Source of the DNA: a virus
DNA length: 64,000 bases
Reading direction: 5' to 3' (one strand)
Virus record (IMG/VR): IMGVR_UViG_3300028146_000008
Coordinates: 30,369-94,368 of that record
Shown piece by piece: positions 1 to 31,320 of this stretch. Both the position numbers and the translations under genes were made by a program. The first letter of the stretch is position 1. The number at the start of each line of letters is the position of its first letter. The notes under the pieces were generated by a model, which worked only from the letters and a program-made list of their open reading frames with translations, had not been told where the DNA came from and did not search any database.

Positions 1-104
1 GCGTCTTCTCGCTTAGTCTCTCACGCTGCGATTTCTCGCTTGCGCCTCGTTGCCATTTCAGGGTTCGAGTCAATCAGAGAAGATTTTAGGAACACCGAGT
101 TTTA
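1..104 (-). ncRNA. Group I intron 3 of capsid gene (5' part, truncated by window edge)
   Basis: P1: exon GGAACAU pairs with GUGUUCC ending in U.G. P3 UCUUCUC/GAGAAGA, P4 CUCG/CGAG, P6a GCGA-GAAA-UCGC, R element GAGAGACUA. The 5' splice site could be after 105 or 104. Confidence 0.85.
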
Positions 105-1620
105 ATGTTCCGCCAGTTACCGTCTTCGATTGCATTGTCACCACGTCCGCCTAGGCGAATCGCTATGACTCCGTCTTTACCGAAGATGTAGGTACGGTAC
201 GCAACCACCGAAGCCGCCGAACCCTGATACGCCGTTGTGAGCGTAACCAAGTTCGACTGGAAGAACGCGACACCAGATGCTGGGAACTCCAGCGTGTCCG
301 CGAGGTCAACCGAGACCAAATCATCCATGCGCTGGAGTCCAGGCACGGTGTGCTTCAGTACGTCGATTGCTGAGTTGTTGCTGGAATCGTTCAAGAGGTC
401 GCCAACGGCGAACGGGTGAATGACGCCTGCGAAAAGTGCTTCCGCTTCGTTGAAGGGCTGCACTGCGCGGCCAGCCAGAGACTGGACCTGAGCGCGAATG
501 TTGGCGAGAGCCAACGAAGTACCACCAGTGATCTTGACCGACACGGAGCTGTCAACGCTGGAAGCGCCGTCAGCAACCGCACGGGTGATCGCGGACAGAG
601 ACTGTCCAAGGCGATACGAAAGTTCGCGACCGACGTTTTCAACAACCGGGTCGATTGCGGTAGCGAGGGAAAGGCTGGAGAAGTTCGCGTAGTCCGCGTA
701 CTCACCTATCGTGGCAGTCGTAGTTCCGACTGACGCGCTGATGCCCGTGGGCACCGTGCCTTCGGACACTTGGGCGGTGTTCGCGCCAAATGTGTTATTA
801 GTTGTGTTTAGGGTTTAAAGCGAGGCTTCCTGTGTCACCACAGGATCACTCTTACGGTCACCCGTAAGCTCGGACTCTATCTTCTCTTCGGTTTCCCGAA
901 GGTCTTGCGTATTAGTCTCTACGGAGTTATCTTGTCGATTCAGTAGGCGAATTTTATTGGCCAGTTCTTGGCGTTTCTGAGGACTACCATAAGGTAGCCG
1001 CAAAAACTCTAACGCAAGAATGGCTTGTTCTCTTTTCATTAGCAGGTATGGAACAATTGCGAGTAGAAAATTCTCTCGGTTCTTCTTGCCTGCGGGCATC
1101 CACATATACTGGGTACGCCCCGGTTTTCCGCCGTATCCGATTAGGGATCGAACGTAAAACCGCCCCCCGACATTTTTAACCAACCACTTCATCAGGAAGA
1201 GAGATGTATTGTAAATCGCTACTTGGAGTTGAAAGTCTCCTTGCGCTCTTTTGTTAGCGCAAATAGTTCCTTCTCCATCGACTATCCCGGCCAGATACGA
1301 CCATAAATGTTTTTCCATTTTAGATATTTCCTCGGTATTGTCTGATAATGATTGTATCAGAGATCCACCGATATAGCAAGATTTTTAATTCATGCATAAC
1401 TGTAGGTCTACATGAATAGTTCCAACTGATTACCGGAATTGAGAGGGAGTTCCCGACGTTCTGCACAACGAACGAAAGGAGTCTGCGCTTTCAAATTCTC
1501 AATAAAACGCTTCTTCTTTCAGTTGGTTTGATCTACGACAAGCGTTGTTTAATCGTAGTAAATTACTCGCGATTGCGGTAAGTTGGAAGTAGTGTTTGAA
1601 GCTGGATTAAATCCGGCCAT
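105..1620 (-). CDS. Major capsid protein (N4-gp56-like/HK97 fold), intron-split. Exon1 1620-1552, exon2 1512-1410, exon3 798-105; gene continues beyond the window start
   Basis: Joined exons read MAGFNPASNTTSNLPQSRVIYYD|KRFIENLKAQTPFVRCAERRELPLNSGNQLELFM-Y|NTFGANTAQVSEGTVP..., in frame with ORF 86..769. SD-like AAGGTAG upstream. Lies directly downstream of portal and scaffold. Confidence 0.85.
799..1409 (-). ncRNA. Group I intron 2 of capsid gene, carrying a LAGLIDADG homing endonuclease
   Basis: P1 UUCAUGU/GCAUGAA with U.G, P10 GUUAU/AUAAC, P3 UCUUGC/GCAAGA, P4 UCGGU/ACCGA, R GUAGAGACUA, S AAGAUAGAGUCC, P9 CUUACGG-GUGA-CCGUAAG. Removal restores the capsid frame. Confidence 0.9.
815..1318 (-). 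CDS. Intron-encoded LAGLIDADG homing endonuclease
   Basis: YLAGIVDGEGTI motif, 167 aa, inside intron 2. Confidence 0.9.
   Translation of the reverse strand: MEKHLWSYLAGIVDGEGTICANKRAQGDFQLQVAIYNTSLFLMKWLVKNVGGRFYVRSLIGYGGKPGRTQYMWMPAGKKNRENFLLAIVPYLLMKREQAILALEFLRLPYGSPQKRQELANKIRLLNRQDNSVETNTQDLRETEEKIESELTGDRKSDPVVTQEASL
1513..1551 (-). ncRNA. 39-nt core-less group-I-like mini-intron in capsid gene
   Basis: In-frame insertion with two stops between YYD and KRF. P1 CUACGAU/GUCGUAG, P10 AACGCUU/AAGCGUU, terminal G. Confidence 0.7.
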
Positions 1621-15880: not shown

Positions 15881-15955
15881 TGGGGCCCAGTGATGGATTT
15901 GAACCACCGACCCGCTGTTTACAAAACAGCCGCTCTGCCTCTGAGCTAACCGGGC
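15881..15955 (-). tRNA. tRNA-Thr(UGU)
   Basis: Cloverleaf; anticodon arm GCTGT-TTTGTAA-ACAGC; CCA encoded. Confidence 0.93.
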
Positions 15956-15961
15956 AAAACT

Positions 15962-16035
15962 TGGCGGGGTCGAAGGGAATCAAACCCTCGTTTTTCGAGC
16001 GACAGTCGAGCGTCTTGTCACTAGACGACGACCCC
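15962..16035 (-). tRNA. tRNA-Asp(GUC)
   Basis: Acceptor GGGGTCG/CGACCCC, loop CTGTCGC, G73-CCA; variant T-loop TTTGATT. Confidence 0.88.
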
Positions 16036-16041
16036 TAAATT

Positions 16042-16115
16042 TGGAGCGAGACGTGAGAATCGAACTCACTTCTTCAGTTTGGAAGACTGAGGCACTGCCA
16101 ATATGCCAGTCCCGC
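16042..16115 (-). tRNA. tRNA-Gly(UCC)
   Basis: TCAGT-CTTCCAA-ACTGA anticodon arm, GTTCGATTC, U73-CCA. Confidence 0.93.
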
Positions 16116-25516: not shown

Positions 25517-25601
25517 CTGGGGCAGCAGGAGTCGAACCTGCAATGTCCTTTCGGACTGTCGCCTTAACGGGGCGATGCTGTGCCAGTTGAGCCACACCCC
25601 A
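25517..25601 (-). tRNA. Atypical tRNA with Asn (GUU) anticodon and long variable arm
   Basis: Acceptor TGGGGTG/TGCCCCA, G73; anticodon arm TCGCC-CCGTTAA-GGCGA; variable arm GTCC-GAAA-GGAC; T arm GCAGG-TTCGACT-CCTGC; no encoded CCA. Confidence 0.75.
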
Positions 25602-30624: not shown

Positions 30625-31320
30625 TTACTGGACGGGTGGAGTTTTCGTACACGCGAATCGAGTGTTATCAGTTACGACGACTGCCGGTCCTGGGGAACAA
30701 TGCCATCCGTAAGGCAAGAAATTTGCGCTAACACAGATCGCATCACCCAGAGTGTAGGACGGAGACGGTTCGCGGCCAAAGTAGACGACCGGTTGGAAGT
30801 TTGGCGGCGTCGTTGTGGGAGTACAAAACGGCGTAAGTACCCACGATCCGACGCTACCACCCACAACTTGGCTTTTAGTGACGGACAAACTTATGTCAAT
30901 TTCCGCGTTTGGCCAGCTAAAGAACAGACCGGCCACGCTGCACGAAACCTGTGAACCAACCGTCGCTTCGATTGCCGTAGAGACGAAAGGTTGCACGGGC
31001 AGGGACAGGGTGTTCGTCACGGAGATATTGCAACTAGGGCAACCCGGCGTGCCGCTGTAGTACTGCCCACCGACCGCCGCGCCGGTTCCCATGTTCTTCA
31101 TGTAGTTATACGCTTTTGGCGTGTGCGTAACGTTTGGTGGGCAACTCCCCATCATGGTTGCATAGCCGGAAGTCTGCACGGTGCTGTAAACGGTCGTTCC
31201 GTCTATGCTTAGGGTTTGCGAGTTGTAATTTGCGTAGTGCAGACCTGTCGGAACGCACTGCGCCCACGCTCCTCCTGCGAATAGCGCCAGGACTGCGAGA
31301 ATTAAGAGTGCTCTTTTCAC
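30625..31320 (-). CDS. Secreted Cys-rich protein
   Basis: Signal peptide MKRALLILAVLALFAGGAWA; multiple Cys. Confidence 0.7.
   Translation of the reverse strand: MKRALLILAVLALFAGGAWAQCVPTGLHYANYNSQTLSIDGTTVYSTVQTSGYATMMGSCPPNVTHTPKAYNYMKNMGTGAAVGGQYYSGTPGCPSCNISVTNTLSLPVQPFVSTAIEATVGSQVSCSVAGLFFSWPNAEIDISLSVTKSQVVGGSVGSWVLTPFCTPTTTPPNFQPVVYFGREPSPSYTLGDAICVSANFLPYGWHCSPGPAVVVTDNTRFACTKTPPVQ

Follow-up and report, generated by a model that had tools for sequence, protein, structure and literature searches.

The DNA analysed here (the window, 64,000 nt) comprises bases 30369-94368 of a linear viral contig of 94,368 bp that is estimated to be 85% complete, and whose nearest cultured relative is the podophage Tunturi_3, a phage of Tunturiibacter (Acidobacteriota). 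The window opens within a capsid gene that is encoded on the minus strand, is assigned to PHROG 1357 (major head protein), and is divided into four exons by a 39-nt insert (hereafter the mini-intron, or mini) and by introns 2 and 3; exon 4 lies beyond the window. The major head protein of Tunturi_3 is an uninterrupted protein of 343 aa with 64% identity to the largest capsid exon of the window, and the publication on the Tunturi phages makes no mention of introns (PMC11924767). Searches with Pfam returned no match for the capsid and none for the intron ORF, while PHROGs matched both. A second intact capsid gene was sought across the 94-kb contig and none was found, such that the capsid gene is single. 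Gene callers fragment capsid genes of this kind, and in this instance a 227-aa ORF stands in place of a 340-aa protein. Elsewhere in the window, four tRNA genes were found on the minus strand at the Rfam gathering score (15884-16115 and 25517-25601), and a match to CcsR1 on the plus strand (1889-1956), antisense to the ORF that precedes the capsid gene, falls below the Rfam gathering score (27.6 bits, where 65.3 are required) and is probably due to chance. The features of the capsid gene are given below in window coordinates and in the order of transcription.

1552..1620, minus strand: capsid exon 1, 23 codons (MAGF...VIYYD), with the ORF start at 1620
1558..1552, minus strand: P1 exon strand of the mini-intron, CUACGAU, the last 7 nt of exon 1
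1513..1551, minus strand: mini-intron, 39 nt, core-less, with two in-frame stops
1551..1547, minus strand: loop of the mini-intron, UAAAC
1546..1540, minus strand: P10 guide of the mini-intron
1539..1533, minus strand: P1 guide of the mini-intron
1532..1527, minus strand: linker of the mini-intron
1526..1519, minus strand: Px strand of the mini-intron, CCAACUGA
1518..1514, minus strand: AAGAA of the mini-intron
1513, minus strand: terminal G of the mini-intron
1410..1512, minus strand: capsid exon 2, 103 nt, the frame resuming at 1512 with KRFIENLKAQ
1512..1506, minus strand: P10 exon strand of the mini-intron, AAGCGUU, in exon 2
1429..1422, minus strand: Px exon strand, UCAGUUGG, in exon 2
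1417..1410, minus strand: P1 exon strand of intron 2, AUUCAUGU, in exon 2
799..1409, minus strand: intron 2 (proposed helper), a group I intron of 611 nt that contains an endonuclease ORF
1400..1396, minus strand: P10 guide of intron 2, GUUAU
1395..1388, minus strand: P1 guide of intron 2, GCAUGAAU
1318..815, minus strand: ORF of intron 2, an endonuclease of 167 aa with a LAGIVDGEG motif (PHROG 5046, labelled HNH)
about 1065..851, minus strand: core of intron 2
105..798, minus strand: capsid exon 3 (PHROG 1357)
1..104, minus strand: 5' half of intron 3, an ORF-less group I intron of 205 nt in total, 101 nt of which lie past the window start

The 39-nt insert with two in-frame stops that the earlier note had described at 1551..1513 is real: the sequence ...VIYYD is followed at once by a TAA and ten codons later by a TGA, both in frame, and the frame is back at KRFIENLKAQ. 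Across this same site the major head protein of Tunturi_3 (FYDKKFRENLKAQ) and the capsids of seven close relatives in IMG/VR (L003-L007, L009 and L011; YYDKRFIENLKAQ) are uninterrupted, and the insert amounts to exactly 13 extra codons with unique boundaries, since other boundaries fail to restore the conserved sequence. All three of the splice-site determinants that had been claimed for it (a 7-bp P1 with a U.G pair, a 7-bp P10 and a terminal G) are present. CUACGAU (1558..1552) pairs with GUCGUAG (1539..1533) to form a P1 of 7 bp with the U.G at the junction, AACGCUU (1546..1540) pairs with AAGCGUU (1512..1506) to form a P10 of 7 bp, and the insert is bounded by a U at position -1 and by a last base, at 1513, that is G. 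Nucleotides 1546..1533 constitute an unbroken guide of 14 nt that, but for the U.G wobble, is antisense to the ligated junction, its 3' half forming P1 with exon 1 and its 5' half P10 with exon 2; when the insert was shuffled 2000 times, a P1 and P10 of such length were never recovered. Only 20 nucleotides follow the guide, and the absence of a P3-P9 core, likewise claimed, is borne out by Rfam and by the family alignment. An Rfam search at the insert returned no match and thus no group I (RF00028) core, and in an alignment with the ORF-less introns of 197-237 nt, which are the smallest full introns of the family and approximately five times longer than the mini, P3', P4-P6, P7, P8 and P9 are without counterpart in it. 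The distance to intron 2, put previously at about 100 nt, is the 103 nt of exon 2.

In order to place the insert among its relatives, capsid loci were gathered from IMG/VR and from the JGI metagenomes, interrupted genes were aligned to the nearest intact gene, and mini junctions were refined by the protein that they restore. Full-length introns of 197-1202 nt were found, at many sites, in 36 of 118 distinct loci, and mini-inserts of 33-94 nt in 17, the latter amounting to 18 different sequences at 7 sites. Every one of these 18 distinct minis is preceded by a U at -1 and ends in G, as established by script for 16 of them and by hand for L253 and L057, and a contiguous P1+P10 guide is found in 15 by script (shuffle p <=0.014) and in both of the hand-read minis, the sole mini with an imperfect guide being L008. 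At the gathering score, Rfam detected two of the relatives' introns and none of the minis. An apparent 81-nt insert in L222 was considered as a further mini and rejected, as the sequence represents the 3' end of a full intron and carries the P7 motif.

The alignment of capsid homologues, which the earlier note had proposed as a means of learning whether full introns occupy the site of the mini-intron, was run, and full introns do occupy that site in other phages (L055, L077/79, L086, L247, L248 and L288/289). The first ~30 nt of these same-site introns, including CUUGUCGUAG and the AAACC that follows it, are homologous to the mini of the window, and the homology runs to the P1 guide and past it. 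The segment AAACCAACU had been likened to the tail of intron 2; it is homologous instead to the nucleotides that come immediately 3' of the P1 guide in the same-site full introns L247 and L055, where they lead into a conserved CUCUGAUUGAC block. A related candidate, AAACCAAC of the mini as a copy of the intron 2 tail, was rejected in light of both the homology with same-site introns and its pairing with exon 2. At capsid nt 940 the minis constitute a deletion series of 94 nt (L033/L038/L051), 71 nt (L013) and 45 nt (L240), the last of which is the 94-nt form without an internal 49-nt hairpin. The homologous 5' ends and the deletion series together argue that minis are full introns minus their middle.

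Two homologues of the mini of the window itself were recovered, both from JGI soil assemblies (L206, 40 nt; L216, 43 nt). P1 is identical in all three, and in P10 an exon change of CGU to CGG is matched by a guide change of A to C, which amounts to one compensatory change from an A-U to a C-G pair for which the shuffle control, among three sequences, is not significant. Compensatory changes in P1 are also seen between L021/L057 and L013/L033 (junction table, read by hand). Intron-less contigs near-identical to mini-bearing loci were sought, and the best identities were 72-98% (77-93% for the mini-bearing loci). A scan of IMG/VR with a 14-base pattern fell on a capsid locus in 2 of 119 stretches, nearly all matches being due to chance; a scan with a 17-base pattern gave 44 matches, none in a capsid context; and a related-locus search from a distant capsid query returned mostly uninterrupted genes, two more same-site full introns and no new minis.

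The minis are rarely alone. A mini and a full intron occur together in 16 of the 118 distinct loci; one locus holds a mini alone, 20 hold a full intron alone and 81 are free of both (Fisher p=4e-9, with shared ancestry ignored). Of 20 mini placements, 18 are followed by a full intron at a distance of 24-105 nt, and only two have a full intron as close upstream too; the exceptions are L240, in which the end of the contig cuts off the downstream sequence, and L206, in which the mini stands by itself. Several of the mini/full pairs match full/full tandems found elsewhere (L269 matches L054, and L051/L229 match L052/L046), and it is always the upstream member of the pair that has shrunk. Two loci, L038 and L229, each carry two minis and two full introns in a single capsid gene, with each mini 36-96 nt upstream of a full intron.

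A further relationship between the mini and the downstream intron emerged when the tail of each mini (the nucleotides after the guide) was searched for complementarity with the exon up to the next intron, with equal-sized windows tiled over the whole coding sequence as a control. The best tail-exon helix, which we term Px, falls in one place in 13 of 16 cases, namely an exon segment whose end lies 6-13 nt short of the 5' splice site of the next intron and which immediately precedes the P1 strand of that intron, and in short minis the helix has a length of 8-11 bp. In the window, CCAACUGA (1526..1519) pairs with UCAGUUGG (1429..1422), 4 nt before AUUCAUGU, with a shuffle p of 0.003 and with 0 of 187 control windows along the CDS reaching the score. 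The Px helices of L216, L008, L051, L229, L021 and L057 are equalled in 0 of 187-192 control windows, that of L052 in 4 of 190 and that of L253 in 7 of 190, and the set of Px-bearing minis represents at least six mini lineages and five sites. L008 targets the same exon segment as the mini of the window, and L253 the same as L021, and the Px strands of L008 and L253 are matched to their own synonymous codons. In the long minis (70-94 nt) there are only helices of 6-7 bp at the Px place, and these are not significant. The minimum-energy fold of 1575..1380 sets side by side the P1 of the mini, Px enclosing exon 2 and the P1 of intron 2 (z=-2.1), and a fold with both P1 helices and Px is common to most relatives; so arranged, both P1 hairpins would hang from one end of Px, beside the strand that leads into the core of intron 2. 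The location of Px favours intron 2, over intron 3, as a putative helper in cis.

Intron 2 is matched by Rfam RF00028 at 20.2 bits (E=0.035) and by a small-intron nhmmer profile at genome positions 31203-31293 (E=1e-6), the usual GACU/AGUC of P7 is kept, and in a DNA contig from an intron-less relative the sequence is joined from 1409/1410 to 797/798. Its last base is A and not G (...CAACUA, followed across the junction by AUAAC), an assignment that agrees with the restored frame FMYNTFG, with P10 (GUUAU with AUAAC), and with the DNA joint of the intron-less relative. Five other large introns, in relatives, have ends of the form ...AAACA..A(A/C)UA: L019, L046 and L052 (all at nt 93), L086 (nt 567) and L210 (nt 57). 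The ORF of intron 2 crosses the ribozyme core, shares the frame of exon 3 and terminates 16 nt short of the 3' splice site. The low Rfam score and the terminal A make the competence of intron 2 itself, and with it the predicted helper role, less certain.

Taken together, we favour, at a probability of about 0.58, the reading in which the mini is a degenerate group I intron, stripped of its ribozyme, and is spliced by the core of intron 2, docked through Px; that is to say, it would probably be excised by the complete intron 103 bases downstream. The proposal of the earlier note, a non-autonomous intron of group I descent that relies upon a neighbouring core, gains support from these comparative and structural tests because 18 minis follow the same splice-site rules, full introns occupy the same site, a full intron lies downstream, Px is present, and the interrupted exons are under purifying selection (see below). 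We infer that splicing occurs, that the core of intron 2 is its agent, and that events would take the following order. The mini appears to retain what a substrate would need: a P1 hairpin with its U.G, an adjoining P10 guide, a terminal G and the 8-nt Px strand. Through the formation of Px most of exon 2 would be looped out into a three-way junction, and the P1 of the mini would be set beside the P1 of intron 2 at the entrance of the catalytic core, which could then take the P1 of the mini instead of its own. In the first of two transesterifications guanosine would attack after ...CGAU, and in the second the last G of the mini would be bound and exon 1 would attack after it with P10 as guide, thereby joining YYD to KRF. 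The core of intron 2 may splice itself out before the mini or after it, or alternately. A helper that is always downstream and close would be expected because in the native connectivity P1 lies 5' of the core. This model would account for nearly every base of the short minis, and a diffusible helper fits them less well. To our knowledge, no case of a natural group I core serving a second P1 has been described, and two observations stand against the predicted cis helper, namely that L206 is without a helper and that the long minis are without a significant Px.

It is possible, though unlikely, that the chemistry is that of a group I intron and that the catalyst acts in trans, in which case the candidates would be intron 3, excised intron RNAs, or a core located in the missing 15% of the genome, and Px would serve as a stabiliser of the fold only. 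A P1 substrate can be supplied to a group I core in trans (PMC4094466, PMC2532722), and only two such cores are detectable in the 94-kb contig, those of introns 2 and 3. Intron 3 is detected by nhmmer at E=7e-45 (genome 30267-30477), and the cores of the full introns that relatives carry at the site of the mini are most similar to it (blastn, genome 30295-30456); since these same-site introns have cores of the intron 3 type, intron 3 is a possible trans helper. The locus L206 speaks in the same direction, as it has a mini and no full intron over capsid nt 37-1016, and Px is absent from it. In this contig (Ga0181505_10329218) the mini lies at nt 30-71 and the Px strand is degraded. This contig of 1 kb may combine different variants from the population; if it is not such a mosaic, a trans route would be needed because there is no full intron there, and a cis helper would not be universal. 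However, a trans catalyst predicts neither the full intron within 105 nt downstream nor a position-specific Px beside the P1 of that intron, both of which are features that docking of the mini on intron 2 would explain.

We regard as improbable an autonomous mini, be it a minimal ribozyme in its own right or a segment removed by a protein factor of the host or the phage with the aid of exon pairing. A precedent exists in fungal nuclear SSU rDNA, which harbours degenerate group I introns of 56-81 nt (Phialophora PaSSU, Arthonia and Porpidia) that keep P1, P7 and P10 and whose middle pairs with the 3' exon, and one of which, PaSSU (67 nt), reportedly splices itself in vitro (PMC3160393). The phage minis are similar to these in size, in the retention of P1 and P10, and in the exon pairing (Px), and the capsid gene of L206, again, has a mini and no helper. 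Unlike the fungal introns, which reside in rRNA genes, have P7, and for which no helper is described, the phage minis interrupt a protein-coding gene, and their exon pairing adjoins the P1 of a neighbouring full intron. Furthermore, the 20-nt tail of the mini in the window differs from the PaSSU type in that it has no second strand for P7: with 8 of these 20 nt taken by Px, none are left for a P7 or a guanosine pocket. Minis are, moreover, nearly never found without a full intron nearby.

It is very improbable that the insert has no function, whether as part of a dead capsid gene in a defective genome, as an artefact of assembly, or because the capsid start lies downstream of it, even if the window is a metagenomic contig without an isolate. 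The exon pieces that are cut off by minis differ from the nearest intact genes by 144 synonymous and 13 non-synonymous codon differences. For exon 1 of the window, the 22 codons after the start show 10 synonymous differences and 1 non-synonymous difference from the nearest intact gene, L004, and a comparison with L003, read by hand, gives 8 and 0, respectively. As the differences are mostly synonymous, the capsid is translated on both sides of each insert, and this in turn excludes a downstream start and a decaying pseudogene. A capsid start downstream of 1512 had been offered earlier as an alternative and is contradicted by this purifying selection on exon 1 of a capsid gene that has no second copy; the other alternative offered, the deletion of a full-length intron during assembly, is contradicted by the homologous minis in the separate assemblies L206 and L216. 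The 18 different minis, moreover, lie within otherwise intact genes. Two further runs on the window, which are probably DNA, represent relatives without intron 2 or without the insert, and contigs of a further study span the insert with small indels. We also considered, and rejected, translation of the insert in frame, as stops are present and the lengths of the minis modulo 3 are distributed 5/7/6.

Last, ribosomes might hop over the 39 nt in the manner of the translational bypass of T4 gene 60, where an essential phage gene is likewise interrupted by a short gap that contains a stop and opens with a hairpin, and the UAA directly after the last sense codon, which sits in the 5' arm of a hairpin, is in line with this, but we consider hopping barely credible given that matched take-off and landing codons are found in 0 of 18 minis (GAU versus AAG in the window), that a stop directly follows the junction codon in only 2 of 18 (the window and L206; in L216 the first stop is the 6th codon), that the junctions are spread over all three reading phases (14 minis in phase 0, 3 in phase 1 and 1 in phase 2), which, like the gap lengths, is inconsistent with hopping, and that the features that are conserved are those of group I introns.

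A degenerate intron served by the core of intron 2 is best viewed against the introns that are known. Self-splicing group I introns are well established in phages, including those of T4 td, nrdB and sunY and of Twort orf142. As in these phage introns, the mini has a P1 with U.G, a P10 guide directly 5' of the P1 guide, and a terminal G, and it has in-frame stops at its start and resides in a highly expressed phage gene; unlike them, it is without P3-P9 and without the guanosine-binding P7, and so cannot be a ribozyme alone. The capsid gene of the phage LittleE is interrupted by an ordinary group I intron of 819 bp (PMC3706429). Nor does the arrangement resemble a discontinuous, trans-spliced group I intron, for introns 2 and 3 are both complete, down to a P1 and a P10 for each, and the mini adds no element of a core. 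Engineered group I ribozymes, or 'spliceozymes', excise internal segments bounded by U and G and join the flanks, including in E. coli (PMC2532722, PMC4094466); in engineered trans-excision-splicing the guide is on the ribozyme, whereas here guide and tether are on the segment to be excised, in a natural system. The closest conceptual parallel is offered by the group III introns found in the plastids of Euglena, themselves degenerate forms of group II introns (PMC8393795). In these, too, splice-site elements are kept, catalytic domains are lost, and full-size relatives are thought to supply the rest, although the minis belong to another intron class with another chemistry (group III introns form lariats) and to a phage and not an organelle. 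Full-text literature searches returned no description of helper-dependent group I mini-introns.

More broadly, we would put at even odds the proposition that Tunturi_3-like soil phages harbour a natural 'one ribozyme, two introns' system, in which upstream introns would have been reduced to guide-plus-tether cassettes of 33-53 nt, each docking its P1 beside that of the full intron that follows, by way of the three-way junction at Px, and being spliced by the core of that intron. If the splicing proposed here is true, it would be the first natural case known to us of a group I ribozyme that serves another intron, and it would come with a docking design that can be read directly, in which the guide lies in the substrate and the tether helix lies beside the P1 of the helper; such an architecture could inform the design of RNA-excision tools. 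It would also mean that self-splicing introns could decay into helper-dependent ones while an essential gene continues to work, a course generally considered for group II introns and the spliceosome alone, and would provide, within group I, a parallel to the division into degenerate introns and a shared catalytic RNA by which group II introns are believed to have given rise to the spliceosome. For the phage itself, capsid production would be tied to the neighbouring intron, and the helper could no longer be lost.
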